Assembly (NCBI GenBank): GCA_965217895.1
Contig: CBDCJV010000002.1
Span: 1 to 64,000, forward strand
Direction: 5' to 3'
DNA: 64,000 bases
DNA from: Waterburya sp.
GTDB lineage: Bacteria; Cyanobacteriota; Cyanobacteriia; Cyanobacteriales; Xenococcaceae
The position numbers and the translations under genes were made by a program. How positions within the stretch are numbered: position 1 is the stretch's first letter; every line of letters begins with the position of its first letter. The notes beneath the pieces were generated by a model, which ran no database searches, was not told the origin of the DNA, and worked only from the letters and a program-made list of their open reading frames with translations. Shown piece after piece: positions 1 through 49,674 of this stretch.

Positions 1-218
1 GAAGAAAAAGTAAAACAAACTTAGGTTGGTCTTAATTGTCTTTGGCTTGTTAGCGGCAACTAGCAAGCCATTCATTTTTGTTATTCTACGATAACTCGTT
101 TAAAAAGCAAATTAAGGGGATACAAATGTACATTCACTAATTATTTGTCGTCTTAACAAAATAATGTCATCTAACCTGACAGTCTTAAATCCTTTTCAAC
201 AAAAGACTTTATGTCGAG

Positions 219-244
219 TGGGGGTAGGGAGACTTGAACTCCCA
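219..244 (-). repeat. att site: duplicated 3' end of tRNA-Leu
   Basis: TGGGGGTAGGGAGACTTGAACTCCCA identical to 15358-15383. Confidence 0.95.
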
Positions 245-320
245 GTAGACCGACTAACCAGCGCAATAGCGTTCTCTCAAACGCTTACTCGTTAACCATT
301 GCAAGCAAAGTGAGTAAGAA

Positions 321-1726
321 ATGAGTAAGGATTACACAGACGAGATAGGATACGAGACTTTATTATCTGACTTCAGTAGATACCAGAAGCAAACGCCTAG
401 AGGTGTAGGTATGACTCGCAAAGGTCAAAACATCTACTTGCAGTTTAAGACTCCTAATACAGCTAGAAAGCCTTATGCCTGTGGCTGTACATTTACCACG
501 GGATGGTAGAGGCTCTTAAAAAATCTAACAAAGTAGCGGAGGCGTTAAAAAACTTAGCTTCCGAAGCAGAATTCTGGCAGTGGTACGACAAAGAAATTAA
601 ACAGGAGTCTCAGTTAGCTGATGACAGGCTGACTTTTGGTGAAGCGATCAAAAAGGTAGAGGATGACTTTTGGGATAGACCTAGTAGAACAAAAAGGAAA
701 AGGGATAAAGATAATCCTAGTGACCAGTCAAGCTGGCATGATACCTACGGCAGATTTTACAAATATCTTCCAACCCATAAAACGCTTAACCTAGCTGACA
801 TTCAAAAAGTCATCGATAGACAGAAGAAAGGTACAAAAACTTTTAAAGGTGTCGTTTCTTCTATGAAGCGTTTATGTAGGCTTGCCCATAACCGAGCGTT
901 AATCGACCAATTAGACGAAATAGATGTAATGCAAGTTGAGTACAAAAAGCTTCAGAATATAACATTACAAAGCTTTTTGGAATGGAAAGACAGAGTGCTT
1001 GGAGTTAGCAGCAAGCTTCGTTCAAATGCTCGAATAGACGTAAGAAAAGCTTGGCTGTGGGTTTTTTCTACACAGATAATCTATGGACTAAGAATTCATG
1101 AAGTATTCGCAATATCTAACTTGTATACTCCTTTTGAAACAGAAGACGGCGTGATAATTCCGTCCTTATCAGATGCTACTAACACAAACAACCTAATAGT
1201 TGTATCTGGTTTCACCGCGACTAAAACTACAACTAAAACAGGCTACAGAATAGCGCGTCCTAATATTCCGCCTGCCTATCCTAACCTAATAGACTTGCTA
1301 GATATTAAAAATCCTTTGCTACCAGAAATTGGCGTACAGAATGGTAGCGATAGAGCTAAGGCAAATTATTACAACAAAAGTGCTTATAAAAAACTACTTA
1401 AGTGGAATGCTCCTTTTACCCAGACACACGCTTTACGGCACTTGGCTAATATCAACGGGATACAGGCGGGGATACCTCAAGAAGTTAGAGCGCAATCGAT
1501 GGGACATACAGTACAGATGAATGAATCCGTCTACAAGAAAAGACAATCAACGCAGACAACTATCGATTTGTTACTTAACTCCAACCAGAATGCTATTGAC
1601 TTCGTTACTGCACTAGCTTCTGTTAAGAGGCTCTGCGCTGCCTCTCCTGAAGACAAAGAGATATCAGCTAAAATACTGTCAATCGTCTACCAGAAGGACA
1701 AGGAAGGGATTCTTGCGCTACTATAG
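321..1726 (+). CDS. Tyrosine recombinase/integrase, split by an apparent -1 frameshift near 500 (ORFs 321-509 and 503-1726)
   Basis: YGLR, HALRH, SMGH and Y motifs; adjacent to att; the two ORFs overlap in different frames. Confidence 0.85.
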
Positions 1727-1769
1727 GTGCATTACTGGACTAGGTATATATTAAACCAATATGCTTATC

Positions 1770-1800
1770 AAAAAGAGGCTCTCTAACAGGAGTCTTTTTT
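1770..1800 (+). terminator. Probable intrinsic terminator after integrase
   Basis: aaaagaggctct-ctaac-aggagtc-tttttt imperfect hairpin with T tail. Confidence 0.5.
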
Positions 1801-2151
1801 ATTGTTTGTCTGCACCTTTGGGTGCAAAGAGGTGCTTACAAATCAAGGTTAGCTTTAATTTAATAAAGTACAAGATTATTCTCTTTGCAAGAATAGCATC
1901 TCAGATTAAGCGTATTGAGTCAAACCCAATCAGCAAGCGATGGCATTATACCTCTTCACCTGCGAACGTAAAGTGTTTCTCGTACCTCAAAAACCTGCGG
2001 TCAAGCACTTGACTTTCTTCGGCTTCGAGCCATTTTGTAACCATCGCTGATTAGGGTGTTTCGTGACTGTTTTTAAGAGCAATAGAAGCAGAAGGTGAAA
2101 CAGTAAACTTAGTACATAATTGCTTAACAGTAGAAGCTGAGAGACAAAGCT

Positions 2152-2637
2152 ATGGAAGAGAATAAGACGGCGATCGCGGGATACTTCGATATTACAGAAG
2201 AGGAACTGATAAGCGAGTATGCGGACAAACATAGGATGACTAGATCTGAAGCTTTAGAGGCTCTGGTTAAGAAAGGTGCTGGGATTATTGACGAGACACC
2301 AAAGAGTCTGATGGAGGATCGAGACTTCGATGCGTGGAGGCTTGTAGCAGAAGACGGCATTATGGCTGCTAATAAGCTAGCAGTACAGGTACTGGAGAGG
2401 ACAAAGGAGTTAGAAGAGCAAGTAGCGTATTTAGAGTCTGAACTAGACAAGATTAAGGCTTTACAGCAAGACGAAAATGCGAAGTATTTGAATGATGAAC
2501 GTATCGCAGCCATAACGGGACAAAGTGAATGGAAGGTCAAGCTGTGGCGACACGGTATTCAAAAACCCAGGGGGAAAATAATCAAACGGAAGTTAGAAGC
2601 TTATGCGGTAAAAGATGGTGTTTGGGTGAAGAGGTAG
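2152..2637 (+). CDS. Putative RHH-like DNA-binding protein with coiled coil
   Basis: IAGYF...EYADKHRMTRSEALEALVKKG resembles a ribbon-helix-helix; heptad-rich middle. Confidence 0.55.
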   Translation: MEENKTAIAGYFDITEEELISEYADKHRMTRSEALEALVKKGAGIIDETPKSLMEDRDFDAWRLVAEDGIMAANKLAVQVLERTKELEEQVAYLESELDKIKALQQDENAKYLNDERIAAITGQSEWKVKLWRHGIQKPRGKIIKRKLEAYAVKDGVWVKR

Positions 2638-2720
2638 GTAGGCATATCTAAAAAACGTACAACGAAGTGTACAACGCTTTCTGGAAATGCCTATAAACTC
2701 GTTGGTGTTTTTAGGTTATT

Positions 2721-4877
2721 TTAGTTGTCTTCAGCTAGAGCGGGGTCAAAGTCAATGTCGTTAACATCTGTTTTAGTCTGAACATCTTCCTTAGCCAAGT
2801 CTTTCTCTTCTTTCTTGAGATCTAAGGCGGTGTTAACCTCATTCTTTAGCACCTCTCTTTCTGACTGTAGCTCTGCAAAGCTCTCTCTGATTTCAACTAC
2901 CTCACTACTTACCTCGCCTATTCTGTCTGCCTTTTCTGTGAACTCCTCTACATTCTCAGTCAGACCCGACAGCTTACGCATTGCTCTGTTCTGAGGACTG
3001 TATTTTTCGGACATCTCTTCATAGGCATCTTCGTAAACCGCTCCAGCTTCCCTGAGAGCGTTACCTATCTTACCTGTATTAGTAGCCGAAGCCTCTGCGA
3101 TGTTTCTAGCTGAATCAAACAGACTGAAGGTTAAATCAGCTAAGTTAGCAGCTGATTGGTAGACACGACTATAAGATGCCAGTTTAGCAGTGAGTGCTTC
3201 GTAGTTTCCAGCACCTAATATTCTTTGCATCATCTGAGTTAGTTTTTCACTGACTATCTGTTGGACGTCAAACGGTTTACCTTCCGAGTCTTTAAGCCCC
3301 ATGGCTTGAAGCGTGACGGTAGCAACGTCAGCAAGACTGTTCCCCAATCCTCTAGACAGCATTACCCCGTTATGAATAACTACCGCTGTTGTAAGCGCAT
3401 TGAGGATCTTGTCTCCGTGGGTAGCCTTCCAAGCGGTACTAGCGAATTTTTGTATTTTAGACAGACCATAATCGGCATGAGAAACTATGTCTCTTGTTGT
3501 CGTAGTAGTTGTATCTATTCTTCTAAGTAGAGGATCTTGTAGTAGCAAACCATTTAATAAGCCTGTAATATTTAGCAACCCTGGTGAACCTGGTGCTAAA
3601 GCTCTATTTGCACACGAACCAGCACAGTCATCTGTCGCGGTTTGATTGGGTGGCTTGACAGGGGGGATAATTGGCGGAGGGAATGGTTTAGGGTCGTTAT
3701 CTGTAATTTTTTCTTGCTTAATCGAAGGGGGTGGAACAGGATTAGGAGTAAAAATAATAATATTGTTTTTAGGCTCGGGGTCGGGAGTCTTGGTAATTTT
3801 TACTGGTTTGGGGTCGGGAACTGGTGTAGGCGTTGGGTTTAATATTTCAGAAGGATTTACAGTAATCTTAATAATTTTTCCATCTGAATCCTTGGTCGTA
3901 ATTCTCTTGATGTATTTTTTGCCAGGAACGAGATCGGGGTATTCATTCTTTTGTCCTTGTTTTTGTTCGATTATCTCTTTAGTGCCACCATTAATTTCTG
4001 GCTTTATTTCTGGCTTTGGCTCGGGGTCGGGTATAGGAACAGGTGTAGGAGTAGGTAATATGCCTGGCTTATTACTTATTGTCGGTAGAGGAATAAAATC
4101 AATCTGAGGATACTGGTTATTACCAAAGCTAGGCAGCTTACTAAATCCTGCAAATTGCCATTCTTTAGCTCCAAGCAGATCGATTAAGGCTAATCCTGCT
4201 GCAAACTGATTATTAGCTTTGGTTTTAATATCTTCTTGTATTTCGGGCTGAGGGATATTGTCAACTGTAATAAACCTTTGTCCCCATAGACCGCTAGTAC
4301 CACCCAGGTAGATAGTTGTTATTACACCTAAAAAATCAACGACCTCAACATAATAATCAGCATTACGTTCACCTGCTGGTCTTGAATCGTATTTACCTGT
4401 GCTGGGATAGTAAACGTAGGTAAAAAATTTATTATCGGCTGGATAAGAGGCAATCCCTTTGTAGAATGCCTTTAATCGCCAAGACTGGATGCCGTTAAAC
4501 CGATCTGAGTTGACCCTTACGTAGTCATTACCCCATGTCACCACGCCGTTATTAAGATTAGCTTCTCGATAAACAAAGCGATAATAGGTGTCACGCGACT
4601 GGGGATAGCTTTTTGTGCCTATTTTTTGCTGCTCGTCAATCTGCGTAATCCATTGAGGGATCGTTCCGTCGCTCAAGGGCTTGTTATTAAAGAAAAAATC
4701 AAGAAGAACTAAAGCAGGGATTCCTAGAAGCTTACCTACCCCCTTGAGCAACACAGGTGGTTTTGGTGGTTTGGGGATAGGACTTCTAAAGCTTTCGTAA
4801 ATACTAGGGGGTTCAGTCGTGACGACAAATCTAGTTTGCCCCCCAGGTGTTTTGACAAATTTTGAATAAATGCCCAT
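2721..4877 (-). CDS. 718-aa hypothetical protein, Pro-rich linker and coiled-coil C-terminus; possible virion/adsorption protein
   Basis: Long ORF; PTPTPVPIPDPEPKPE tracts; hydrophobic N-terminal patch. Confidence 0.6.
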   Translation of the reverse strand: MGIYSKFVKTPGGQTRFVVTTEPPSIYESFRSPIPKPPKPPVLLKGVGKLLGIPALVLLDFFFNNKPLSDGTIPQWITQIDEQQKIGTKSYPQSRDTYYRFVYREANLNNGVVTWGNDYVRVNSDRFNGIQSWRLKAFYKGIASYPADNKFFTYVYYPSTGKYDSRPAGERNADYYVEVVDFLGVITTIYLGGTSGLWGQRFITVDNIPQPEIQEDIKTKANNQFAAGLALIDLLGAKEWQFAGFSKLPSFGNNQYPQIDFIPLPTISNKPGILPTPTPVPIPDPEPKPEIKPEINGGTKEIIEQKQGQKNEYPDLVPGKKYIKRITTKDSDGKIIKITVNPSEILNPTPTPVPDPKPVKITKTPDPEPKNNIIIFTPNPVPPPSIKQEKITDNDPKPFPPPIIPPVKPPNQTATDDCAGSCANRALAPGSPGLLNITGLLNGLLLQDPLLRRIDTTTTTTRDIVSHADYGLSKIQKFASTAWKATHGDKILNALTTAVVIHNGVMLSRGLGNSLADVATVTLQAMGLKDSEGKPFDVQQIVSEKLTQMMQRILGAGNYEALTAKLASYSRVYQSAANLADLTFSLFDSARNIAEASATNTGKIGNALREAGAVYEDAYEEMSEKYSPQNRAMRKLSGLTENVEEFTEKADRIGEVSSEVVEIRESFAELQSEREVLKNEVNTALDLKKEEKDLAKEDVQTKTDVNDIDFDPALAEDN

Positions 4878-5185
4878 TAGTTTGCTTTGTAGGCTGCGGG
4901 TAGCTGAGTATTGCTAAACTCCAGTGCTTTCGTCCAAAGCTTTGCCGTATTGTCTTCTGCATAATCGGCTGCTACTTCCAGGCTCAATCTGCCAATAAAC
5001 CTAATTTTTCCATCATCAGCCTGTACCAAAGCGGTTTGCGCTACCTTCTCGGCTGTCTGGTCGGCGATTTCAATGACTGCTAAAGTTGGATTTACTCTTC
5101 TCAATGCCATACACGACCACATAGCTAGGCGTTCTAAAGTATTGATTTGACTTGGAATATCGGTAGCAATGTTAATTTGAGTCAT
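4877..5185 (-). CDS. 102-aa hypothetical protein, translationally coupled to the 718-aa ORF
   Basis: Stop overlaps next start (TAATG). Confidence 0.65.
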   Translation of the reverse strand: MTQINIATDIPSQINTLERLAMWSCMALRRVNPTLAVIEIADQTAEKVAQTALVQADDGKIRFIGRLSLEVAADYAEDNTAKLWTKALEFSNTQLPAAYKAN

Positions 5186-5254
5186 TATTTAGATATCTTT
5201 TGGGTGTAACTAAGGTTAGTATTCAAACAAGTACTAATGTATCATAGACAAAAG

Positions 5255-5584
5255 GTATTTTGTTTTCAAAGCAAGGTACAGGTAAGACTAGGTTAGCTAG
5301 TAAGTTTCCAAAAGACCTTTTACTTAATTTACTACTACTAATTCTTAAATAATCAATAGTATTTTTTAATATATTATTTTTATTCTGGGAGTCTAAGGAA
5401 GAAAGTAAAAGTGACTTAAAGCTATGAGTAGAAAAGGGTGGAGTATAACGGATATCTAGCGGGGTATTACTAGGGCTATTTTGGGCAGGTGAAAACTACT
5501 GGTTGCTATTTTGATTGTTTGGATTTATCATTGTCTTTGTGTAAAGAAAGTTGGTCTTGTTTAACAGGGCTTCTTTTTTTTTGC
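5255..5584 (-). pseudogene. Truncated 5' fragment of the rep gene found at 46663-47703
   Basis: 330 bp nearly identical to 47367-47696. Confidence 0.9.
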
Positions 5585-5588
5585 CTAT

Positions 5589-6038
5589 TTATCGGAAACC
5601 GACTTTTCTTATTTTGTTTTCTACCTGATAGCAGTTATAAGCACCTTTTAAGCTGATAGCAGAGTGAATAGTGTTTTGATAGCTTCTAGCTCTTTCACCA
5701 CTAGACCAGGATTTGTTTTTTTCTAACGTGGTTAATCCTCTACCAGTAAGTTGAATTAATTGGTTAAATTCCTCTTTACTTAGCTTCTCAAAAGTAAAAC
5801 TTAACCAGTCTAAATGGTTATGAAATACGCAAAGAGATTTGTCTATAAAGTTATTATTTTGTAACTCATTACTAGCAGTAGGTACAGATGATTTGTTGGT
5901 TGTAGTAGGTGTAGTGTTTGGGATATCTAATCGGGTGTTACTAGCTAATTCTCCCAAGGGTGCTTTTAAATTGTTGCTATTTTGACTGGTATTTAAATGA
6001 TGAAAGAGTCTGGTTTGTAACCATCCTCTTGGTAGCAC
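5589..6038 (-). pseudogene. Probable N-terminal fragment of a second Rep_trans-like initiator
   Basis: HLDWLSFT and YQNTI segments parallel TIDYLRIS and YQNSI of the 346-aa Rep; ends early. Confidence 0.55.
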
Positions 6039-6275
6039 TAGAAAGCTTTTGTTATCGAACTACAGTATCTTAAGAAACAATTAGATAGACAGATAAAAAA
6101 ACAAAAGACAGATAAAAAGTTTAAAAACAAGAATCAGTAGTTATCCCTACGCGTTTTTAGAGCGTGCCTGTTTCTTATCACGTTTTTAGAGTGCGCATCT
6201 ATTGGAACAACAGAAACTAAACAAAATATTAACACCTGAAATTAAAAGTTAGTATGAATATACCAATTAGAACAG

Positions 6276-7094
6276 GTGAGGAACGAACTTGTGAGTAAAC
6301 CAGATGTTGAAATGTTTCAAAGTTACTGTAGAACTTACTTTAACAAGGCTATAAACAAGCACTTTAGAGACGTTGACGGTAGTGATGACGCTAGCCTTAG
6401 CACGGCTGCGCCAAGACAGCTAATTAAACGTATTTGTCTACATAAGGACACCGATACAATGACTCTTACGTTAGCCAGGATGTTAACCTGGTGGGTAGAA
6501 GCGGGAAACTTATTAGATGAATACGTTTACGGTATTCCTAGCACTGACTTTGAGATTTCTAATACCTACTATCCACAGGTAAAGCTTCACTTTAGAGAGG
6601 ACAAATATGAGGCTTCCGATAATGAAAGAAGACCAGCTAGGAGCGAGGTAAGTTTTAGGTGGAGAGAAGAAGATTATACGACAACAAATATTAATCGACT
6701 GGCTTTAAAAATACTAAATGATTTTGCTAGACCTGTTTTTTTCTACAGAAAAGGCAGACAGTTGTGGAGTTATGCAGACAAACAGAAAGGTTACTTTTTT
6801 AGCGTCACTACAGATGACGAAACGGACGCCAAGAAAATAATCGAGCAGGCAATTAGGATACAAGATGACAGCGAACCAGACTGGGATAATTTTCTCAGAT
6901 ACCACGAAGACAAAAAAAATTACAATGTACCTGGAACAGTACGAGTCATGGGCGATGTAGTCAGGAAGCCAAAACGAAGACCCGTAGCCACAGTTAAATT
7001 TGCTTATGCAGAATTATTTATTCCAGGATTGACTCAACCGCTTATTTTAGTAGACAGAACGGGGACAAAAGCAAGAACGATCGAGGTTGCTTAA
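6276..7094 (+). CDS. 272-aa hypothetical element protein
   Basis: Long ORF, first of the rightward gene block. Confidence 0.7.
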   Translation: MRNELVSKPDVEMFQSYCRTYFNKAINKHFRDVDGSDDASLSTAAPRQLIKRICLHKDTDTMTLTLARMLTWWVEAGNLLDEYVYGIPSTDFEISNTYYPQVKLHFREDKYEASDNERRPARSEVSFRWREEDYTTTNINRLALKILNDFARPVFFYRKGRQLWSYADKQKGYFFSVTTDDETDAKKIIEQAIRIQDDSEPDWDNFLRYHEDKKNYNVPGTVRVMGDVVRKPKRRPVATVKFAYAELFIPGLTQPLILVDRTGTKARTIEVA

Positions 7095-7211
7095 AAAAGT
7101 GTGCGCCCTTAAAGGTCGATTCTCTAATCAGTTGCCAGTCAAATCATTTTCATTCAAAGACAGATAGGTTAGAAACAAAGTGTAAATATATAAAAATAGC
7201 AATAATTAGAT

Positions 7212-7775
7212 ATGGCTAGAAGATTTAGTAGATTAAAATATGCCTTGACCACTTTGCGTACTCCCAACTCAAACGCCCCCACTCCCGATGCCCCTGCTAA
7301 TACAATTGCCAGAAACTTTCAAGACTTTGCTTCTGGGAAAACTAAGTTAGTTTATTCCAGAGACGATAATAGCAATCCTGGTGAAATTTTAAAAACAGGC
7401 ATTTTACCTTTTTTCTTCGGTGGAAACCCTGCGAATGGTGCAATCGTAGCACTTTCAAAACGAGCAGATGAGAAAGCGACTCTGGACTCTGTACAAAGTG
7501 CTTGTAATCATGTTACTTACGACCCAGAAAGTCAAACCAAGATACAGGGCTTTAAACCTGCGCAGGTAACTGTATTTGATTACGGAACAGGTTCGGCATC
7601 ACCAACTAGTCAAATTACGGGCATTAAATACAGCAAGAGAATCGGCAATTCTTTTACCTTCCCGTATGGTGCATCGGCAACAGAAAAAGCAGAAAACAAA
7701 GTTAGAGGGGATATACTTATTGCTGTCGAAGCACTTACGACTGCTTCAGCTAGTTTTCATTCTGAGAAGTATTAA
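7212..7775 (+). CDS. 187-aa hypothetical protein, candidate structural protein
   Basis: Basic N-terminus (MARRFSRLK), Gly/Ser/Thr/Ala-rich body. Confidence 0.6.
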   Translation: MARRFSRLKYALTTLRTPNSNAPTPDAPANTIARNFQDFASGKTKLVYSRDDNSNPGEILKTGILPFFFGGNPANGAIVALSKRADEKATLDSVQSACNHVTYDPESQTKIQGFKPAQVTVFDYGTGSASPTSQITGIKYSKRIGNSFTFPYGASATEKAENKVRGDILIAVEALTTASASFHSEKY

Positions 7776-7777
7776 AA

Positions 7778-8014
7778 ATGCTTGATAGGGCAATAGAGCT
7801 AATTATCCCTGGTGGTAGTACTAGGGATATGAACGACAGTGATCTAGACAGATTAATGGACACCTATGCCATAGTCGAAGTAGCCAAGGACGATTTTTTG
7901 GCTCAGAAAATTAGCTTTCAGGAGTACATCGATTTACTTGAAACCGCTCAAGTGAACATCGACGGCTATCTAGAAACTATTGAAGGCAATCTAGAAGAAA
8001 TGAAATTGGTATAG
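7778..8014 (+). CDS. 78-aa acidic hypothetical protein
   Basis: Tightly packed in operon. Confidence 0.6.
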   Translation: MLDRAIELIIPGGSTRDMNDSDLDRLMDTYAIVEVAKDDFLAQKISFQEYIDLLETAQVNIDGYLETIEGNLEEMKLV

Positions 8015-8020
8015 CCAGTT

Positions 8021-8755
8021 ATGCCAGCAGGACAAGACTTAATATTTTTTGATAACTCTGAAGATTGGAGGATTGTAGCCGATGCTAGTAGAACAGCTAC
8101 TATTATCAATGAAAATTCTCATACCCCTATACCTCCTATCGACCTTGGCGTTAGCCTTTTTTCTGACTATATTGCTGTCGTAGCTACAACAGGCTCGGGC
8201 AAACCTAGCTGGCAGTTTGCAGGAGATATCAGGCAAGTTTACAATTTTGTACCTGGTGGTAATAGCCCCGTAACGAGTGTTCTTCAAAGTCTTCCGACCC
8301 GCTTGTTTATTAACAAGCTACAGATAGTCGAAACAAACCGCATTAGTACCGATAGGTTTAGGCTTAGGTATACACCGCCGTTTTGGTTTAAAGATGTGGC
8401 TATCAGGGTTTACGAATATACAGGTGACACGCTTAACTTCGTCGAGGATGCTTTGTTCGGCATTGGTAATGTGCTAGGCATCGATCCAAATCAACCCAGT
8501 GGTTTGATTGAGGCACAACTAACGGTAATTGAGGAATTGATAACGGATAAATTTAGGGAACTAAGCGAGAGGGAAACTTCCCAGATACAGCTTGATGACT
8601 TTAGAGAAACGCAGCTTAATACTCGGATTAGTCAAACAGACGCAGGATTATATACCTTGGCTGAGGGATTAGCTGCGCTATTGCCACCAGACCAAGGACA
8701 GGCTTTAAGACAAGTGATTGGCAGCAGACTACAAATAGATTTAGGGTTTTTATAA
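8021..8755 (+). CDS. 244-aa hypothetical protein (beta-rich N-terminus, helical C-terminus)
   Basis: Operon packing; stop/start overlap with next ORF. Confidence 0.65.
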   Translation: MPAGQDLIFFDNSEDWRIVADASRTATIINENSHTPIPPIDLGVSLFSDYIAVVATTGSGKPSWQFAGDIRQVYNFVPGGNSPVTSVLQSLPTRLFINKLQIVETNRISTDRFRLRYTPPFWFKDVAIRVYEYTGDTLNFVEDALFGIGNVLGIDPNQPSGLIEAQLTVIEELITDKFRELSERETSQIQLDDFRETQLNTRISQTDAGLYTLAEGLAALLPPDQGQALRQVIGSRLQIDLGFL

Positions 8756-9288
8756 TGGAAAGTTCGATTAAAAAAGATATTATTCTCAATGGCACTGACT
8801 CGATTGCTGTATTTAAAGAAGATGGGTTGGTTTACAGAGCTAAGGAGTTGGAAAGCTATACGCCGATAGTGTTTTATGACTTGAAAGCAAACAAACAACA
8901 CCAGTTTGACTTAAAAGATATTTTGGGCAAGGAGTACTTGGTAGTAGCAGCAGGTAGCGACGTTGAATCTGATGATGACTTTATTAGTGTTTCTGATATA
9001 GACGCCAATAACGCAGGTTATGCAAGTTGTTATTTTTCAATTGTGAGGCTAGAAAAGAGAGTATTTTGTCGCTCTCTACTGCCTACTAAAGAATTTATCG
9101 ACCAAAACTTTATTACTTTAACTCCAGGGGATACGGTACTAATTTCTCCATTAGCTAACTTGAATTCGTTAACACTTTACTGTGTACCTATCTATCTAGA
9201 AAAAACAATAACAGTATCAGGAGTAATAATAAATGAACCTGTCGATCAAGGAGATGCGGGAACGGGCGATGGCAGCGATAACAAGTAG
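8755..9288 (+). CDS. 177-aa hypothetical protein
   Basis: TAATG coupling to previous ORF. Confidence 0.6.
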   Translation: MESSIKKDIILNGTDSIAVFKEDGLVYRAKELESYTPIVFYDLKANKQHQFDLKDILGKEYLVVAAGSDVESDDDFISVSDIDANNAGYASCYFSIVRLEKRVFCRSLLPTKEFIDQNFITLTPGDTVLISPLANLNSLTLYCVPIYLEKTITVSGVIINEPVDQGDAGTGDGSDNK

Positions 9289-9859
9289 AACATCTGATGA
9301 CGAATGCCTGAGTGTTGATTACCTAATCGATACCGAAGCAAGAAAAGTTTTAAACCTCCCCCCTAGACCTAAAGGAGCTTTGCCTTATGTTGGCTGGATG
9401 ACACAGCCTGATGAAAAAACGATTAAACCTAATAAGACTTCGCAGATTGGCGTAAGCCTGATCAAGAAGTGGGAAGGCTTAAGAACCAATGCTTATCTTT
9501 GTCCCGCTGGTGTCTGGACTATTGGTTATGGACACACTAAGGGAGTAAAGCAAGGACAGATGATTAGTCACCTTGAAGCTGAAAACCTTCTTATAGAGGA
9601 CTTGAGAATTTACGAACAAGCTGTACTCAGGCTTGTAGACGTGCCTTTAAATCAGAATCAGTTTGATGCCTTAGTTAGCTTTACCTTTAACGTAGGTATT
9701 GATGCGTTTAGTGAATCTACTTTGCTTAAACTACTCAATCAAAAAGACTATCAAAGAGCGTTTAATGAGTTTAGCCGTTGGACTAGAGCAGGAGGAAAAC
9801 TTTTGCCTGGTTTGGTTAACCGCAGAAAAGACGAATGCAATTTATTTATAAAGCAATGA
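9233..9859 (+). CDS. Phage lysozyme (GH24 endolysin); start uncertain
   Basis: LIKKWEGLR..AYLCPAGVWTIGYGHT, NQNQFDALVSFTFNVG, LPGLVNRR. Confidence 0.93.
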   Translation: MNLSIKEMRERAMAAITSRTSDDECLSVDYLIDTEARKVLNLPPRPKGALPYVGWMTQPDEKTIKPNKTSQIGVSLIKKWEGLRTNAYLCPAGVWTIGYGHTKGVKQGQMISHLEAENLLIEDLRIYEQAVLRLVDVPLNQNQFDALVSFTFNVGIDAFSESTLLKLLNQKDYQRAFNEFSRWTRAGGKLLPGLVNRRKDECNLFIKQ

Positions 9860-10257
9860 TTACTAAAGGTTTTACTCGACTACCTCCATTAAGCTTGAAT
9901 TTGCTTTCTGGAGGTGTTTTTGTGTTTATCGTTTGTTTAGGTATACGGGTTGCTCGTGCGCCTGAAGTCGGCTTAAAGGTAGCGAATACTCAGCTAATCA
10001 TTGGCAGCAGTGCGAACAAACTTACAGAAGTAGCAGCTAAGCTAGATAGTCAGGCTGAGATTATTAGGCAAAAAGACGAGGCTTACGAGAAGCTAAGAAA
10101 GGTTTACGAGGAGTCTTTAAAAGGACAGGAAGGGTACGGAAGATTACAGGGAGCGATAGAAGAGATTCAGGAATTGCCAGAGGTAGAAAATACAGAAGAG
10201 ATAAAAACAGAAATATCAGCTACTAAGAAAATTATTAAGCAGGTAACTAGTGAGTAG
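9856..10257 (+). CDS. Membrane-anchored coiled-coil protein, spanin-like by position and topology
   Basis: One N-terminal hydrophobic helix then coiled coil, directly after lysozyme (ATGA overlap). Confidence 0.5.
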   Translation: MITKGFTRLPPLSLNLLSGGVFVFIVCLGIRVARAPEVGLKVANTQLIIGSSANKLTEVAAKLDSQAEIIRQKDEAYEKLRKVYEESLKGQEGYGRLQGAIEEIQELPEVENTEEIKTEISATKKIIKQVTSE

Positions 10258-10376
10258 ATGTATATCTGAAAAACGTTGAACGATGTGTTGAACGCTTTTA
10301 GAAGATGTTCTTAGAAGAGAGAACAAGTAAAGTTTTTATATAAGTGATTATTTCCCTGTGGCTACGCCCACCCACC

Positions 10377-10412
10377 CCTAGTATATTTCCCTTGCCTAGT
10401 ATATTTCCCTTG
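10377..10412. repeat. Perfect 18-bp tandem repeat x2
   Basis: CCTAGTATATTTCCCTTG twice, followed by an AT-rich tract. Confidence 0.9.
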
Positions 10413-10679
10413 GAGCGAAGCGGAATAGGGTTATTAATATAATTGCTTTTAAAAACACTAACGTCAATAGTTGTGTAATTATTATTTACAATAAAAATAA
10501 TAATTTTAATTATTTAAAAAATAAGCCAATTTTTAGCTAAAATTTCCGTATTTTTCCTGATGCGAGTCAAAAAAAAAACGATAGTAGATTAAGTTTAAAA
10601 AGTCAAATCTACTTACCTTTGAATCAAAGCTCTGAGAGATTGCCTTTAAAGCTTTAGCTAACAATTCAATAGGAAAACT

Positions 10680-10991
10680 ATGCCTGAAATAGAGACTATT
10701 ACCTGGCGAGAAATGACGGGTAATAAGTTTATCAAAGCTTTGCACCCCGCTATGGTTAGCGAGGCTGGATACGAGTGTAATAAAAGTATTCGACGTATTG
10801 GCGATCCAGTACCGACCATGTTTAAAGTTATTTACGACCGTCAATATGTAATCAATTACATAGGAAAAGGAGTCTGCAAAACACTTTTTGTTTTAGGTAA
10901 AGAAGGAGTGTTAGATCTTGTTGACGAAGCTTGGGATAATTACTACGGGGTTCTAGACAACAAGAAGCGCTCTTACGAGGAATCTGCTTGA
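10680..10991 (+). CDS. 103-aa hypothetical protein
   Basis: RBS-like AGGA before ATG; first of second rightward operon. Confidence 0.6.
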   Translation: MPEIETITWREMTGNKFIKALHPAMVSEAGYECNKSIRRIGDPVPTMFKVIYDRQYVINYIGKGVCKTLFVLGKEGVLDLVDEAWDNYYGVLDNKKRSYEESA

Positions 10992-11515
10992 TGCCAGCGA
11001 GACCAAAATATAAAGCCGTGCCTGTTTTTTGGAATACAGAACTCTGTTCTGTCCTTGACTCTAGGAATTTAGAAATATATCGAGTAAAAGGCAGGCTAAA
11101 TCTCCCCGAGCATATCTGGAGGTTTGACTCCCAGCACGAGTTTAAAACATATCTAGAGCTATGCAGAATGTACGGTGAAAACAGGATAATTAGACAGCTA
11201 CCAGTATCAATACTAAAGCCTAGTTATTGTTATCCAAGAGGGAAAACATGGAAAGTCGATTTTGCCATTTCTAATAATTCTCAACCTAACAAACCTTTGT
11301 TTTTTGTAGAGGCAAAAGGTGCATTCTTAACAGAATTTGCTCTTATCTTAGGAATCTTAGAAGAACTTCGGTTTAATATTTTCCGCAGGCTTAGAATTGT
11401 CTTTCCTGAAAAGCTACCAGTTGAAAACAAGATGGTTAAAACACTGCTTCAGTCCGACTTCAAAAAAAATCTGTTGACCTTAAAAGAACTAGAAAAATTA
11501 AAAATATTACGATGA
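10988..11515 (+). CDS. PD-(D/E)XK-type nuclease, DUF1064-like
   Basis: FDSQHE...VDF...VEAKG pattern. Confidence 0.65.
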   Translation: MMPARPKYKAVPVFWNTELCSVLDSRNLEIYRVKGRLNLPEHIWRFDSQHEFKTYLELCRMYGENRIIRQLPVSILKPSYCYPRGKTWKVDFAISNNSQPNKPLFFVEAKGAFLTEFALILGILEELRFNIFRRLRIVFPEKLPVENKMVKTLLQSDFKKNLLTLKELEKLKILR

Positions 11516-11733
11516 CACCAATAGAATCACCTTACGATGTTCGACTCGTTACTTTAATCGGCTTGGCTATAAACGCGGTTGAAACACTAGCACTAGAACA
11601 GAACAAAAATCCAGAACAGCTTGTAGCCGAGCTGCTGTATGTGACAAATAAAAGGCTGCACGAAATAGGGGAAGAAGATTATTTCAAGAAGTTGTCTTCT
11701 TTCTACCCTATTCTCTCTGAGACAATCTACTAA
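11512..11733 (+). CDS. 73-aa hypothetical protein
   Basis: ATGA overlap with upstream ORF. Confidence 0.55.
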   Translation: MTPIESPYDVRLVTLIGLAINAVETLALEQNKNPEQLVAELLYVTNKRLHEIGEEDYFKKLSSFYPILSETIY

Positions 11734-11766
11734 TTATTTCAACGCAAACATATATCGAGAACAGTA

Positions 11767-12486
11767 ATGACAGTAAAGTATTTAGACCCCTACAAAGACG
11801 ACCTCTATGGCAAACTCAAAGGAGACAAAGCAGAAACATATTTCAAAGTTACCTTTGATGAAGCTAAAGTATACCCTACGAATGATGCTTACATTATCGC
11901 TGCTTTTGTCACTAGTTATTCTGGCATCGTCAGAAGCTTCAAAGCAAGTGAAGTACTCGTGCCTGGATTATGCGCCATACCTATCTACGGACAAGAATAC
12001 GAAATAAGAGAAAAAGATGCTAACGGCAATTGGCAGGGTATCAAGTATCAACCGTCGGTTTTTGAAAAGGCTTTATACGAATATATCAAAACAAACGAAG
12101 CCTTTTTTATCCCTCCTTCTGGTGGCATCAAAGGAGAACTTGCTTTTATTCCTAACGGGATATGTGCATCGATGGACCAGGCTAGCCTGGAGGCACTGGT
12201 AGCAACCAACGCCAAAACTGAGGTCATCGATCTTAGCGGTAAGTTACCGCAATATACTCCACCGTCGAACGGTGGTTTTAAGAAGAATGGTGGGGATAGC
12301 AAAGGAGCTTCGATAGAAGAGAAACTAGCTTTTCTTAAAAAGCAGATGACTGCGGATATCAAAGACACTAGCTATACCGAGGAAGATTCCTTGGCTACTC
12401 TGACAAGACGAGTTCACACAGAGAACGAAGACTGCGAAGGCTTTTCCGATATCTACTTTGAGATGTTAATGGCAATTATCAGATAA
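11767..12486 (+). CDS. 239-aa hypothetical protein, possibly ssDNA-binding/replication related
   Basis: ORF directly upstream of ATPase; Gly-rich linker. Confidence 0.55.
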   Translation: MTVKYLDPYKDDLYGKLKGDKAETYFKVTFDEAKVYPTNDAYIIAAFVTSYSGIVRSFKASEVLVPGLCAIPIYGQEYEIREKDANGNWQGIKYQPSVFEKALYEYIKTNEAFFIPPSGGIKGELAFIPNGICASMDQASLEALVATNAKTEVIDLSGKLPQYTPPSNGGFKKNGGDSKGASIEEKLAFLKKQMTADIKDTSYTEEDSLATLTRRVHTENEDCEGFSDIYFEMLMAIIR

Positions 12487-12488
12487 CT

Positions 12489-13682
12489 ATGGCTTACGAT
12501 TACTCAACCTTGTTTGTGTCTGAGGACGGCATAAGCGACACCTGGAGGGAAATTTATAGTGACAATTTGACTCTTCCTGGAAACTTGCTAAACATCCTCA
12601 AGCAAACAATATTTCTGCCTCATGACTTTTACGATATTATCGCTACTTACTTTATGCTCCCTTCTGCTTTGTGTAAGATTGTTCCTTATTTGTTCCTCAA
12701 CGGACAATCGGGAAGTGGCAAATCAACGCTTGCTAAACTGGCTAGTTGTCTACACGGTGTTCCTATTAACTCTAGTAGTGATACTTTTGCTGGCATAAGA
12801 AACAGCTTAGAAGAAAGAAGGACCGCCTGGGCAGAAGTGCCAGTAGCAGAAGGAGAAAATCAATCTCCTTACAAGACAGTCGAAAGAAATACCTGTATGG
12901 TTTGGGACGACGTTAGTGCTAACACCTTTACCAGTAGTCCAGAGCTGTACAATATGTTTAAGTTTGGGTATGACAAAAGTACAGATAAGATTGTTGTCTC
13001 GTCTAAAGAAACAGGAGTCAATATAGAGTTTAGGTGCTTTTGTCCTAAAGTGTTTTCTAGCATCTCACCTCTGCATCTAGACGATCGCTTTAAAGAACTA
13101 AGGAGGCGACTGATAGTAATCCCTTGTAGTCGCGTAGAGGAACTTTCAGACAATCGTAAGATCGAGTTAGGGATAACCGATGATAACTGGCAAAGTGCGT
13201 TACTGGATATATCTGCTTATAGCTGGAAAGGGTTCTCTAAGCTATATGATGAGTTTTGGGACATCGACGTAGCTAGTACTTTTGTTACTGCTAGGCGTAT
13301 TTTAAGCAAGTCAGTAAAAGGACTAGGTTCTCAACAAAGAACTATTAGCCTTGACATGATGGCTTGTGGGATTGCCACTGGTATCTGGTCAGACGACACG
13401 GAAGCAGTTAACAGGATGAGAGATTATTGGTTTTGGTTTAAAAGGGAAACCGAAAAGAGCGCGGGGTTAAGTAGTCTGCTTAGAGATTTTGTAGCTACTG
13501 AAACCAAGAATGCCTTGAACGCCAACATGGAACTGATACTCTATACAGCTCAAATACGCGGTCAAGTAGATATGTGGGTACAGCAAGGTTGGTTGTTTGA
13601 AGCTCCTAAGCCAAGAGACACTAAAGAGTGTTTGCTTGATTTGGGATTGAGATTGCAAAAAGGCAAATGGACTAAAGGATAA
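12489..13682 (+). CDS. P-loop ATPase (helicase/primase-associated type)
   Basis: Walker A GQSGSGKS, Walker B MVWDD, ELRRR arginine-finger-like motif. Confidence 0.8.
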   Translation: MAYDYSTLFVSEDGISDTWREIYSDNLTLPGNLLNILKQTIFLPHDFYDIIATYFMLPSALCKIVPYLFLNGQSGSGKSTLAKLASCLHGVPINSSSDTFAGIRNSLEERRTAWAEVPVAEGENQSPYKTVERNTCMVWDDVSANTFTSSPELYNMFKFGYDKSTDKIVVSSKETGVNIEFRCFCPKVFSSISPLHLDDRFKELRRRLIVIPCSRVEELSDNRKIELGITDDNWQSALLDISAYSWKGFSKLYDEFWDIDVASTFVTARRILSKSVKGLGSQQRTISLDMMACGIATGIWSDDTEAVNRMRDYWFWFKRETEKSAGLSSLLRDFVATETKNALNANMELILYTAQIRGQVDMWVQQGWLFEAPKPRDTKECLLDLGLRLQKGKWTKG

Positions 13683-13689
13683 GAAGATT

Positions 13690-14022
13690 ATGAAATTTAC
13701 ACAAGAAGAAAAATTTTTTCTATTGCTTGCTTTATCGGAAAAATCGGAAAGGAACGCCAACGCTTTGAAGAAGCTTGAAAACAATAAAGGTCGCCTGTCT
13801 TTTCGTAGTCTTCAAGAGCTAGAAGAAGGGTTAATTAGTGCTCGTGCAGCCGAATTAGGCTTTATGCTAATGCGCAAGATAATTAAAAGTCAGAAGCCAA
13901 TACCCGAAAGCTTTGAAGCTCTAAGAGAAATCGATGGAAATATTCTTACCTCTAGAGCAATAATAGCGGTTTTAGAAGCCTGTGAAGAATTTGATTGGAC
14001 AAAAGCAGCAGGGTGCAATTAA
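13690..14022 (+). CDS. 110-aa hypothetical protein
   Basis: Operon packing. Confidence 0.55.
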   Translation: MKFTQEEKFFLLLALSEKSERNANALKKLENNKGRLSFRSLQELEEGLISARAAELGFMLMRKIIKSQKPIPESFEALREIDGNILTSRAIIAVLEACEEFDWTKAAGCN

Positions 14023-14251
14023 GTTCTGGTCGCTGAAGCACGCGATAGATGACGAGGTAGCTATTTTAGGCTGGTCTACTACAGCCTGCATATCTGTCAT
14101 CAAGAAACGCTATGAGAAGCGTTCTAGGTTGCTTTTAAGCGATGAACAGCTTGAAGACCTGTTAACGTACCTACGTCTTTTAAACGCTGGTGGTGATACT
14201 CAAAAATTACTCACTAAGAAGGAAAAGCGTAAGAAGCGTAGGCGTAAGTAA
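13982..14251 (+). CDS. 89-aa basic hypothetical protein
   Basis: Lys/Arg-rich C-terminus; start uncertain. Confidence 0.5.
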   Translation: MKNLIGQKQQGAIKFWSLKHAIDDEVAILGWSTTACISVIKKRYEKRSRLLLSDEQLEDLLTYLRLLNAGGDTQKLLTKKEKRKKRRRK

Positions 14252-14308
14252 AAAACGTACAACGCAGTGTACAACGCTCTAGAAATATACAAACACTAAA
14301 GGAGGCTC

Positions 14309-14617
14309 ATGAGAAAAAGAAATAGGCTACACAAAGGGTTTTCGCTGGATATCGAAACAATAGAAGCAATAAAAATAAAGTCCATTGAAGAAAAGGACAA
14401 CGATAGTAGAGCTTTAGATGTAATCGTACGTGAGTGGAGGGAGTTTGAACAGAGACAAAAATACGCCGAGCAAAACCGCACTTTCAATGACGAGGAATTG
14501 CTCAAAAAAGTATCATCTCTTTGTAGGCGCTCTTTTGAGCTTTATGACGAGATCTCAGATCTAAGGTCAGAAATCAACACTAATGTCTGGGAGACTAAGA
14601 GGGAAGAGGCTATATAG
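14309..14617 (+). CDS. RHH-like protein
   Basis: Strong RBS AAGGAGG; KGFSLD..TIEAIK...SRALDVIVREW. Confidence 0.6.
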   Translation: MRKRNRLHKGFSLDIETIEAIKIKSIEEKDNDSRALDVIVREWREFEQRQKYAEQNRTFNDEELLKKVSSLCRRSFELYDEISDLRSEINTNVWETKREEAI

Positions 14618-14769
14618 CCTCTATTGTACATTGTTTGTCCTCAATTCAGCCGAACAGTTTTCTTGGTACTGGGAAGCAGAGAAAACAGATGCTTACATAG
14701 TCACTCAAATTAAGCGGTTTGGGACGGTTTTGAAGATTTGGTTTTTTTTACAAATACGAAAGGAATATT

Positions 14770-15033
14770 ATGAACAAAAAAGAAATACTAGAGCTTATTA
14801 CTGACTCAAGCGAAAGAGACTTGCTAAAAGTTGAAGAATTAGCAACCGAATATAATGTAAATTTTGATATTGCTACGAGGCTAGTCATAAAAAACTGGTT
14901 TGACTACCAAGAAGAAAAGCAGTTAGAAGACGGATCGAAGTTACTTCGTTTAGGAGGTTTAAAAGAAAAACTGATTTCTACAGATGGGATAGTAGATAAG
15001 ATGATAGAAAAGCTAGAAAGCGATCGAAAATAG
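14770..15033 (+). CDS. 87-aa hypothetical, RHH-like
   Basis: RBS AAGGA; VEELATEYNVNFDIATRLVIKNW. Confidence 0.5.
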   Translation: MNKKEILELITDSSERDLLKVEELATEYNVNFDIATRLVIKNWFDYQEEKQLEDGSKLLRLGGLKEKLISTDGIVDKMIEKLESDRK

Positions 15034-15157
15034 ACTAATAGAGGTAAGGGAAAATAGAAATAATCCACTACTTCCCTAACAGGATGTGCATTAAGCTTAA
15101 ATCTCATTCTCGTGCGAGTAGAGGTTAGGATAAATTTCAGATACTAGATTTGACATA

Positions 15158-15197
15158 ATGACGGAGTTGTGATATTTTGCAACCCGTCATTTTTTTG
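15158..15197 (+). terminator. Intrinsic terminator
   Basis: tgacggagttg...caacccgtca followed by T run. Confidence 0.6.
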
Positions 15198-15357
15198 TGC
15201 TTATCTAACCGCTCGATAAATTGGGGTACATAAGTACCCTATTGCTTTTTGTTTAGGAGCTTTGTATATTTAGTTTTGAGTAAGTTTTGAGTAAATCAAC
15301 GTTGACCGTAAAAGGTCGTTGCGATGAAAGTCGGTTGAGATGAGGCTTTGAGCCGAA

Positions 15358-15443
15358 TGGGGGTAGGGAGACTTGAACTCCCACGACCTTTTACGGTCAA
15401 CGGATTTTAAATCCGCAGCGTCTACCAATTCCGCCATACCCCC
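15358..15443 (-). tRNA. trnL: tRNA-Leu(UAA), intronless
   Basis: GGGGGTA/TACCCCC acceptor stem, anticodon TAA, long variable arm, GTTCAA T-loop. Confidence 0.95.
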
Positions 15444-45745: not shown

Positions 45746-45830
45746 GGAGAGGTGGCAGAGTGGTCGAACGCGCTCGACTTGAAATCGGGAAAAGTGAAAG
45801 CTTTCGTGGGTTCGAATCCCACCCTCTCCG
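45746..45830 (+). tRNA. trnS: tRNA-Ser(UGA)
   Basis: GGAGAGG/CCTCTCC stem, anticodon TGA, GTTCGAATC. Confidence 0.95.
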
Positions 45831-46662
45831 TACTTTCGGGGCTATTGTACTCAGAATGTACTCAGAGTACATTGACAATTTAAGCTTCCCTCTGTGATTA
45901 TTTTGACTGTAGGTATTGACTTGAGTACTTGAGTGTGCATTAAAGCAACAGTTCTTTTGTGCTGCAAAACTAAGCCTAGACTTGACAAAATACCCACATT
46001 AGTATCCATTTTGAGTCCTTAGTTTTTCCTTAGAAGATAATACAAATGAACCAGTCTAATTTGAGCTTAAGTAGTAGCTAGCAGAGGGAAATCAGATTTA
46101 GCTCAAATCAAGTGATTTTGAGTTACTATTTAAGCGTCTGATTTTTCTACTCTCAAACCAATTTGGGTGATTTGGGTGAAAACAATTTTTGAGTAAGAGC
46201 ATCTTCTGAAAACGTAATACGTTTTGTTATACACTTTCTAGATATACACTCACTCACTAGAAACTTGCTTAATAATTTTCTAATTGCACCTATAAAAGTT
46301 TGTAATTATCCTAGTAACCTTTCGTAGTTCTATTTAACTTTTACTCAAGCCTAAAAACAGGGTAGGTAAGTACATCTGAAAAACGTACAACGAAGTGTAT
46401 AACACTTTTCAAAGATGCCTACAGTAGCTAGGTTTTGCTTAATCTAAATCTAGGTAATCTAGGTTATTTCGTAGGTACTCAATTCGCTTTTTATCCTGTT
46501 GAGTAAACTTAGACTAATAGTGTTTAAAAGGCTCGTTTAAGCAGCAAGGAACTTGATAGGTATCAAAGGCAATTAATAGCCTATCAAGTCTCTAACTAGT
46601 GCCTTTATGTGTCGCTAAAGCTATTGTTTTGTTTAATTAGCTTTTTGAAAGTTACTGATAGC

Positions 46663-49653: not shown

Positions 49654-49674
49654 ATCCCACCCTCTCCGTACTTT
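49634..49674 (+). repeat. att site: duplicated 3' end of tRNA-Ser(UGA)
   Basis: GAAAGTTTTCGTGGGTTCAAATCCCACCCTCTCCGTACTTT. Confidence 0.92.

Follow-up and report, generated by a model that had tools for sequence, protein, structure and literature searches.

What kind of element sits in a tRNA gene with lysis genes of its own and no recognizable part of a tailed phage? The question is raised by a 64,000-nt stretch of Waterburya sp. DNA (the window), in which an element of 15,165 bp (positions 219–15383) is flanked by exact 26-nt repeats (219–244 and 15358–15383) identical to the 3′ end of tRNA-Leu(UAA). The target gene, the only Rfam match, lies at 15358–15443 on the minus strand and contains the attR core (15358–15383), and the attL core (219–244, unstranded) copies tRNA positions 61–86. 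This exact pair confirms the two att repeats proposed in a first-pass annotation, and every ORF listed there is present in the window. The element is real: it is integrated in a tRNA gene and carries an integrase, a GH24 lysozyme and an operon with an SF3-like ATPase. Three copies of a 41-nt repeat, D1 (2638–2678, 10256–10296 and 14238–14278, unstranded), mark module boundaries and are probably operators. No short spacer-like match to the element was found elsewhere in the host genome among the matches listed, and no RNA dataset was listed as containing it.

The tyrosine integrase (321–1726, plus strand) matches phrog_1 (E 6e-8), so the predicted gene is there, but a 4-nt deletion breaks its reading frame, 469 aa in relatives, leaving pieces of 62 + 407 aa. 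The deletion is missing from a second genomic copy of the element and from public contigs X1 and X2; the frameshift is probably an assembly artefact, as is, probably, part of that second copy. Downstream, a 161-aa gene (2152–2637, plus) kept in the close clade is, from its position, a probable regulator. The replication operon comprises genes of 103, 175, 73 and 239 aa (10680–12486, plus), followed by a 397-aa P-loop ATPase with SF3-helicase-like motifs (12489–13682, plus), in whose place other members carry primase-helicases. Of the nuclease/ATPase/RHH operon first described, the ATPase stands; the nuclease and RHH labels are readings of motifs, and neither these nor the SSB-like label found a match in PHROGs or Pfam; the 10680–12486 segment may include nuclease-like and SSB-like genes. 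Five small variable genes (110, 89, 102, 73 and 87 aa; 13690–15033, plus) are probable regulators.

The GH24 endolysin (9233–9859, plus; PF00959, E 6e-52), named as a lysozyme in the first-pass annotation, is intact. The overlapping gene (9835–10257, plus) encodes a 140-aa membrane-anchored protein whose N-terminal hydrophobic segment (KD19 2.23) is in keeping with an earlier spanin-like label; the protein may be i-spanin- or holin-like. Not every family member has lysis genes; GH24 occurs in 14 of 71 loci.

Between integrase and lysis genes lie seven ORFs that had been described as one coupled block. That description does not hold: the 718- and 102-aa ORFs are on the minus strand, and a 1.1-kb gap with truncated replication-initiator pieces precedes the run from 272 to 177 aa. 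These pieces (5252–6038, minus) are two 5′-only parts of rolling-circle initiator-like genes that most relatives lack; positions 5252–5584 are 96% identical to the 5′ part of a Rep_trans gene at 46663–47703, and a 149-aa ORF is, judging by a motif, presumably rolling-circle initiator-like.

What might the block encode? L700 (718 aa; 2721–4877, minus) has a variable N-terminus, a Pro-rich linker (collagen in some relatives) and a conserved helical C-terminus; it is a candidate attachment or entry protein, and 4 of its 34 members contain repeats of collagen or fibre type. H100 (102 aa; 4877–5185, minus) is core-associated and gives way to H110 in other members; hhalign found no link between the two, and we equate them because they share a position. 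X270 (272 aa; 6276–7094, plus) is modelled as a helical N-domain and an alpha/beta C-domain and, at two loci (L101 and L102), is fused behind fibre-like collagen or coiled-coil stalks. B190 (187 aa; 7212–7775, plus), for which the model is confident, is the best candidate for a coat or nucleocapsid protein: B proteins are basic (median charge +5.5 per 100 aa) and A75 (78 aa; 7778–8014, plus), a candidate chaperone or scaffold, is acidic (−14). The B190 family falls into 734 clusters at 50% identity, and a two-copy complex prediction gave a median of 0.36 against a mark of 0.42. Some members carry tandem 115-aa basic proteins instead, again equated with B190 because of their shared position; hhalign found no link here either. 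J150 (244 aa; 8021–8755, plus) combines a domain of ~135 aa, beta-rich in the alignment, with a coiled coil and, on a jelly-roll reading made by eye, is a candidate shell or vertex protein. The last ORF (177 aa; 8755–9288, plus) is clade-specific.

A palindrome (centre TATA/TTAA) is conserved across the family 60–110 nt upstream of the B gene; 28 of 52 loci have it there, compared with 20 of 506 other genes. When only the best palindrome of each spacer was compared, most results fell short of significance, and the window's own copy (7103–7119, unstranded) is imperfect and falls below the standard of the strict test. The palindrome is probably a late-promoter activator site.

Does any of these proteins belong to a known virus machine? 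None of the 24 ORFs matched terminase (including the large subunit characteristic of Caudoviricetes), portal, capsid, tail or Zot families in PHROGs or Pfam, in agreement with the first-pass annotation. Sequence searches that included L700 returned no portal family and no HK97-fold major capsid family, and the X270 and B190 models had no significant match to the latter. For the FtsK/HerA-type packaging ATPase of Varidnaviria (PM2 and PRD1 types), Pfam gave no match, whether in the window or among the 71 cluster representatives. The element's only P-loop ORF is the 397-aa ATPase, which 12 of 71 loci have, and among the 39 of 71 loci listed with motif flags no core family has a P-loop that is conserved. 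The pI/Zot extrusion ATPase of Inoviridae and relatives was likewise absent from window ORFs and family loci, and a scan of ORFs of 50 aa and above for the short Inoviridae-type major coat protein with one membrane helix found no hydrophobic 19-mer scoring ≥1.8 in B190 (0/36), A75 (0/37) or H100 (0/13).

Confident structure models cover two of the seven ORFs, X270 and B190; both are alpha/beta and not eight-stranded sandwiches, unlike the double or paired single jelly-roll major capsid proteins of Varidnaviria (PM2, PRD1 and FLiP types). Searches of solved folds gave best Z scores of 5.7 (X270) and 3.8 (B190), neither a match, and listed no capsid, portal or tail family for these models. A 2H-phosphoesterase-like assignment of X270 (Z 5.6) was rejected as below the meaningful range. 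Profile searches of X270, B190, J150 and L700 against solved structures returned nothing meaningful, J150 had no sequence match in PDB or PHROGs, and PHROG scans of alignment members gave scattered single-member matches, collagen repeats being the exception. In the ESM Atlas, X270 had a first match at 0.88 and B190 no usable match. The top BFVD matches of the two models, A0A510E869 (E 1.1e-3) and A0A510E8A2 (E 0.11), have adjacent accessions; both are weak matches to unnamed entries, at TM 0.37 and 0.24; Aeropyrum globular virus 1 was discarded as their source, having no 443-aa ORF. In PHROGs, Pfam and profile searches, and in fold searches with the X270 and B190 models, no ORF matched ordinary tailed-phage parts.

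The block is conserved as a unit elsewhere, being kept across many cyanobacterial genera: X270 occurs in 93 of 401 genomes of the host's order and in 53 of 142 genera. Among 71 loci chosen by X270 for gene-content counts, a B-type gene is found in 55, J150 in 52, L700 in 46 and A75 in 39. The replication modules of these loci vary (primase-helicase in 13, ATP397 in 12, DnaB-like in 8, HTH-type in 4) and so do the integrases. Integrase, replication and lysis modules are exchangeable around a conserved core block. Family members span 8–19 kb, and the unit length is 14.5–16.2 kb in the five close copies that are integrated and in the three contigs that are permuted. The att-bounded form of a temperate virus is seen in this element and attP-type junctions in its relatives, 3 of 14 metagenome loci being permuted contigs of this kind (L089, L090 and L093); no attP joint of this copy appears among the matches listed in sequencing runs that contain the element. 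Relatives also reside on circular plasmids (CP019638.1, CP019637.1), plasmid forms carrying ParA/ParB, and a 15.6-kb plasmid has, by profile, L700 and X270 only. Neither scans of viral_contigs nor tblastn of phage records found a family member. The cluster representatives scanned contain no relaxase or conjugation genes; therefore, no other route of spread is evident.

We consider it reasonably likely that the element, one of a widespread and apparently undescribed cyanobacterial family, is a temperate virus that forms tailless particles and has no packaging motor. In such a cycle, the integrase would cut out a circle, which the ATPase operon would copy as dsDNA. A promoter with the palindromic activator site would drive B190, which would coat and condense the genome with acidic A75 as chaperone. 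Beta-rich J150 would form a shell or vertex, L700 and X270 an attachment and entry device, and the endolysin and the 140-aa membrane protein would free the particles. Core conservation, module exchange, the basic B and acidic A75 proteins, the palindrome, the circles, the intact endolysin, the fibre repeats and the adjacent accessions of the two BFVD matches may all be read in support of a virus. Against it, the models of the 272- and 187-aa proteins link neither to a known capsid fold, the BFVD matches are weak, GH24 is restricted to the few loci counted above, the 15.6-kb plasmid has two core genes by profile, no attP joint is listed for this copy, no particle, proteome or virome record came to light, scans of viral_contigs and phage records found no member, and the layout is satellite-like. 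The first-pass proposal of a small tailless virus or lysis-competent satellite is partly supported: neither outcome that it named as refuting came about, the block being conserved and without tailed-phage matches, and circle-type relatives exist. Almost one in four of the order's sampled genomes has the core gene, and the virus catalogues searched contain no member; if the viral reading is true, the particle architecture would lie outside known capsid lineages, and the family would contribute unseen lysis and gene flow to mats and blooms.

Several known systems resemble parts of this picture. Finnlakeviridae (FLiP) and phiCjT23 are small tailless phages with lysis genes, temperate relatives and no packaging ATPase; their capsid protein is a double jelly roll and their ssDNA replicates by the rolling-circle mode. 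The element shares the small genome, the lysis genes and the lack of a motor, but its two modelled proteins are alpha/beta and its replication genes dsDNA-type. Corticoviridae/Autolykiviridae-type (PM2-like) prophages are tailless, ~10–15 kb long and modular in replication and lysis genes, with a conserved 270-aa protein; the family is alike in all of these except that the X270 model is not an all-beta double jelly roll, and it has no conserved FtsK/HerA-type ATPase. The archaeal Portogloboviridae (Sulfolobus polyhedral virus 1), in which a basic protein condenses circular dsDNA within a small single jelly-roll shell and no motor is present, serve as our working model, although no sequence or fold link was found (models of X270 and B190). 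Phage-like plasmid P1 of Microcystis NIES-298, with contig NODE385, is a 17–18-kb circle (PMC12510456). Its integrase and primase-helicase are 42% and 33% identical to those of family members and it has a coupled block of unrecognized genes, but every core profile missed that structural block (hhalign probability 0.6%) and we do not count P1 as a member.

Could the element instead be a satellite, integrating and replicating by itself, taking its shell or motor from a helper and using the core block to remodel the helper particle or as its own adsorption fibre? Phage satellites (PICI, P4-like, tycheposons) combine a tRNA-targeting tyrosine integrase with a primase-helicase in 10–15 kb. The family fits in size, tRNA integrases and primase-helicase modules, the element has an integrase and an autonomous replication module within that range, and it lacks a packaging ATPase and a recognizable capsid; a weak Atlas lead from X270 to tail-terminator clusters (0.82) points the same way, at a value under the tool's more-than-a-lead level. 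Unlike in known satellites, neither a size-determination gene nor an HK97 capsid or terminase small subunit was detected, and the family has a conserved fibre-bearing block of 5–7 genes (~6 kb) in 53 genera that matches no phage head or tail family, along with, in this clade, its own endolysin. When the 23 element proteins were searched by tblastn, the host genome held no larger gene-sharing prophage, a search whose reach is limited to helpers with related sequences. We regard a satellite as unlikely.

Less probable still is an integrative element or plasmid of non-viral nature. Its core block would make a fibre on the cell surface or a particle that contains no DNA, serves in killing or adhesion and is freed by the lysis genes. 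Plasmid forms with ParA/ParB, the optional lysis genes and the lack of members in the viral catalogues searched would suit it, yet the elements occupy many tRNA sites and form circles, with no relaxase or conjugation genes in the cluster representatives scanned, and a small basic protein behind a dedicated promoter fits DNA coating. Decay from an ordinary tailed prophage, to which the split integrase, the Rep fragments in the window and the frequency of GH24 lysozymes in tailed phages might point, is largely refuted and highly improbable, given intact att sites, a steady unit length across integrated and permuted copies, public contigs without the integrase break and no head or tail family match.

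How does the integrase find its tRNA? Beside attL, putative arm-type repeats (284–329, unstranded) overlap the integrase start, with CTTACTC at 284–290 and TGAGTAAG at 311–318 and 322–329, a pattern also found in L009, L010, L041 and L044. On the other side, a −10-like box (TATATT, 15265–15270) and a right arm repeat pair (TTTGAGTAAGTTTTGAGTA, 15275–15293, plus) are followed by a segment of ~30 nt adjoining attR (15300–15332, plus). This "address" is an inverted copy of tRNA-Leu positions 42–74; over the 20 nt that lie host-side of the core it matches exactly, and the T-loop is replaced by TGAAAG; such an inverted copy next to attR is a new observation. In 26 loci picked by the arm motif alone, covering 11 tRNA types, the copy matched the locus's own tRNA in 24 and its own target was the best match in 25. 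Target and copy thus co-vary in 24 of the 26, as for nucleic-acid-guided (bridge-RNA-like) recombinases, which suggests address-based targeting by the integrase. In this clade, the attP arm includes a segment that duplicates the tRNA's host-side flank and differs from one target to another. Most likely, the address helps the integrase complex to engage the target tRNA, acting either at the DNA level or through a short RNA; the −10-like box, which precedes it in 27 of 30 loci, is only suggestive of transcription. The fuller proposal, new-fold particles without a motor together with an integrase steered to tRNAs by a ~30-nt address, probably a short RNA, whose exchange would redirect it, is one that we hold as speculative and doubtful.

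The homing spacers of type V-K CASTs and the bridge RNAs of IS110 elements also place a short target copy at the element end. The element differs in having neither Cas12k nor an IS110 recombinase; its enzyme is a tyrosine integrase, and the putative guide role is read from sequence. The integrase of phage mv4 targets a tRNA gene with relaxed core specificity, and the abstract of its description mentions no extra target copy (10.1101/2023.11.06.565760). With one integrase clade, one arm sequence and at least 11 tRNA genes with matched addresses, programmable site-specific integration is testable here, a case that stands apart from the particle question. In composition, the element is HIP1-poor: its 15.2 kb contain 1 site, whereas the genome averages 1.12 per kb.

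Contig C2 (CBDCJV010000002.1), which begins with the window, belongs to a 5.3-Mb cyanobacterial assembly whose close named relatives are Pleurocapsa- and Waterburya-like. ORF calling recovered every reading frame listed in the first-pass annotation, and the element it described (219–15383) is integrated in tRNA-Leu(UAA): the att repeats are an exact 26-nt repeat (219–244 and 15358–15383) corresponding to the tRNA 3′ end, and the proposed integrase and lysozyme match phrog_1 (E 6e-8) and PF00959 (E 6e-52). These were the only clear library matches among the 24 ORFs scanned, a 397-aa ORF giving weak P-loop matches. Seven ORFs had been read as one coupled block (718 aa, L700; 102 aa, H100; 272 aa, X270; 187 aa, B190; 78 aa, A75; 244 aa, J150; and 177 aa). 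All seven are present, but the 718- and 102-aa genes point the opposite way, across a gap containing truncated initiator-like pieces. Positions 5252–5584 match the 5′ portion of a Rep_trans gene (46663–47703) at 96% identity. The element has one HIP1 site in 15.2 kb, versus 1.12 per kb genome-wide. Its construction is modular, with a 41-nt repeat, D1, at three module boundaries (2638–2678, 10256–10296 and 14238–14278); the strict motif is limited genome-wide to two copies of the element and a 3.8-kb element. The latter lies in tRNA-Ser(UGA) at 45815–49668 and has an integrase and a Rep_trans gene of its own. It bears D1-like repeats, and stretches of 333 nt (96%) and 128 nt (92%) recur in the 15-kb element, so it could be a satellite or have donated these pieces.

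The second copy (C2 3,483,489–3,468,213) is identical to window 1–9735 except for 4 extra nucleotides, which restore a 469-aa integrase; the 218-nt flank is shared too, divergence sets in after 13.7 kb, and the copy terminates at tRNA-Asp(GUC), with no left repeat to match. Two public contigs from one sample, possibly the source sample, have the 4 nt at full depth. In read depth, the integrase reaches about half the level of the core (201 versus ~420; 26 versus ~79), strain mixture blurring these depths. We infer a pair of sibling prophages, one at Leu and the other at Asp; the assembler would have duplicated one of the left ends, and the integrase frameshift would be an error. No attP joint was listed in the read runs containing this element. 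A third, more distant member (C2 3,922,000–3,934,000) combines a different integrase and replication module with an identical 102-aa protein, an L700 49% identical, a divergent X270, two J150 genes and lysis genes; a search for its att repeat found none.

The firmest new observation is an inverted copy of the target tRNA beside attR, hereafter the address. Window 15300–15332 corresponds to tRNA-Leu positions 42–74, inverted, with 19/20 identities flanking the core on the host side, 8/14 within it, and the T-loop TTCAAG changed to TGAAAG. Address scores exceeded shuffles at 4 of the 41 tRNA genes of the genome, namely at the two elements and at two remnant sites, tRNA-Leu(UAG) (2,327,415) and tRNA-Arg(UCU) (3,039,613); the remnants, which have arm-like sequence and an address copy downstream and no element genes, are scars of lost elements. 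As an independent test, we searched 61 genomes of the family with the 19-nt right-arm motif alone (window 15275–15293) and obtained 34 matches in 13 genomes of a single genus (reversed control, 0), 30 of which were used as loci; only 11 of the 30 had an element gene within the examined flank. Several features emerged: (i) a tRNA 3′ end lies 62–65 nt from the arm in 26/30 loci, two of the remaining four stopping at a contig edge; (ii) the address copy scored above all 300 shuffles in 24 of these 26, and in 19/21 when five previously known places were left out; (iii) the locus's own tRNA was the best-matching type in 25/26, across 11 tRNA types; (iv) the T-loop equivalent lies 29–34 nt from the arm in 24/24 copies; and (v) 27/30 loci have a -10-like box ahead of the arm (shuffle maximum, 6). 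Whether they target Leu, Ser or Pro, integrases of the clade share 57–78% identity. The generality of the address is limited by two loci without a matching copy (L106 and L141) and a weak one (L146), and no copies were found in other clades with tRNA sites. At one locus (L131, genome G143), the arm and a tRNA-Leu address copy run directly into sequence like window 127–208, with no tRNA within 130 nt.

What might the address do? It could guide target capture as an RNA or as a DNA address, provide an additional core-type binding site, or form a hairpin silencing read-through from the tRNA. Folding z was −6.8 for attR and −1.9 to −3.3 for attP forms. Identity to the tRNA was 140/160 in anticodon stems and 89/112 in loops. 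C>T changes (36/155) exceeded G>A changes (29/243; nominal p 0.007, the sequences being related), which fits either G-U wobble when a tRNA-sense RNA pairs with the template strand or a mutational bias between strands.

What kind of entity is the element? It is genuine and out of the ordinary, a candidate virus that falls outside all the virus families against which it was tested. With moderate confidence, we consider a temperate virus most likely. The element would excise and replicate as dsDNA, the basic B protein would coat the genome without a motor, J150 would contribute a shell or vertex, L700 and X270 would form an entry device, and the cell would be lysed. Among the alternatives, a satellite is possible but unlikely, a non-viral element that builds a surface or killing fibre is distinctly unlikely, and a decayed tailed phage is highly improbable. 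The systems compared were FLiP, SPV1, PM2, PICIs, CAST homing and bridge RNAs. Circular relatives exist: the core block lies on two circular plasmids, complete on CP019637.1 and detected by profile only as L700 and X270 on CP019638.1 (15.6 kb, with ParA/ParB). Three of 14 metagenome loci are permuted contigs (L089, 14,522 bp; L090, 15,209 bp; L093, 15,210 bp). In the portion of each contig that was examined, the regulator end is joined to the integrase via a tRNA 3′ fragment that stands alone, no tRNA gene being present, which is the arrangement expected of an excised circle. L090 and L093 are near-identical, end at the same sequence and have different integrases and att cores (His, Pro).

X270 matches occurred in 93/401 genomes and 53/142 genera of the order, and its profile in 32/301 genomes sampled across the phylum; B190 formed 734 clusters at 50% identity. 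The core is conserved: in 71 loci chosen by X270, two of them near-duplicates, profiles assigned B-type genes to 55, J150 to 52, L700 to 46, H100 or H110 to 42 and A75 to 39; the order H-L700-X270-B-A75-J150 is almost invariable. Around it, replication modules vary (primase-helicase 13, the 397-aa ATPase 12, DnaB-like 8, HTH-type 4), as do three integrase groups (17, 18 and 18); GH24 lysozyme occurs in 14/71 loci and the conserved gene c19 in 10/71. Four loci (L044, L051, L058, L114) carry two or three tandem basic ~115-aa paralogues in place of B190. Att-bounded lengths are 14.5–16.2 kb in the close clade and 8–19 kb elsewhere, the 8–9-kb elements lacking most of the core block, and some loci are truncated or interrupted by IS elements.

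The X270 model (pLDDT 86, pTM 0.62) has a helical N-domain and an alpha/beta domain, its top structural match among 48,161 chains having Z 5.7 (rmsd 2.3, 48 aligned). The B190 model (pLDDT 96, pTM 0.85) is alpha/beta, with a top match of Z 3.8 (rmsd 8.4, 97 aligned) and a best Foldseek PDB E of 0.38. Neither predicted model is an all-beta jelly roll. The best BFVD matches, both unnamed, were A0A510E869 for X270 (443 aa, E 1.1e-3, probability 1.0, TM 0.37) and A0A510E8A2 for B190 (109 aa, E 0.11, TM 0.24); these adjacent accessions may come from a single virus genome. In alignment, J150 shows a beta-rich pattern over ~135 aa in which three Trp are conserved, along with a coiled coil. B proteins are basic and A75 strongly acidic. 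A palindrome (centre TATA/TTAA) lies 60–110 nt upstream of the B gene in 28/52 loci versus 20/506 other genes (shuffle maximum, 8); the motif was set after inspecting part of the loci, and 7 of 18 added later or unseen then have it. The window's imperfect copy was left out of this count. In relatives, X270 follows a collagen stalk (L102), a coiled coil (L101) or hydrophobic helical regions (L074, L099, L100), which points to a structural role. Collagen or fibre repeats occur in L700 of 4/34 members. Neither scans of viral_contigs nor tblastn searches of phage records found a family member; such scans rely on short exact word matches and overlook remote relatives.

The full-text literature searched, which includes few subscription papers, yielded no account of the family or of any attP carrying a target copy. 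PMC12510456 describes an 18-kb phage-like plasmid from Microcystis; its 17-kb RefSeq record has an integrase and primase-helicase in common with the family but no detectable core. A 15,190-bp nifD element excised in heterocysts is described in 10.1101/629832.

At C2 4,439,500–4,440,600, a lone lysozyme and membrane-protein pair adjoining a transposase is a remnant of the family. The last 6 kb of C2 (GC 0.54, zero HIP1 sites) are unlike the remaining contig and are probably foreign sequence joined onto its end. In three relatives (L048, L049, L060), TIR-domain genes (cluster c56) adjoin the core block as cargo.
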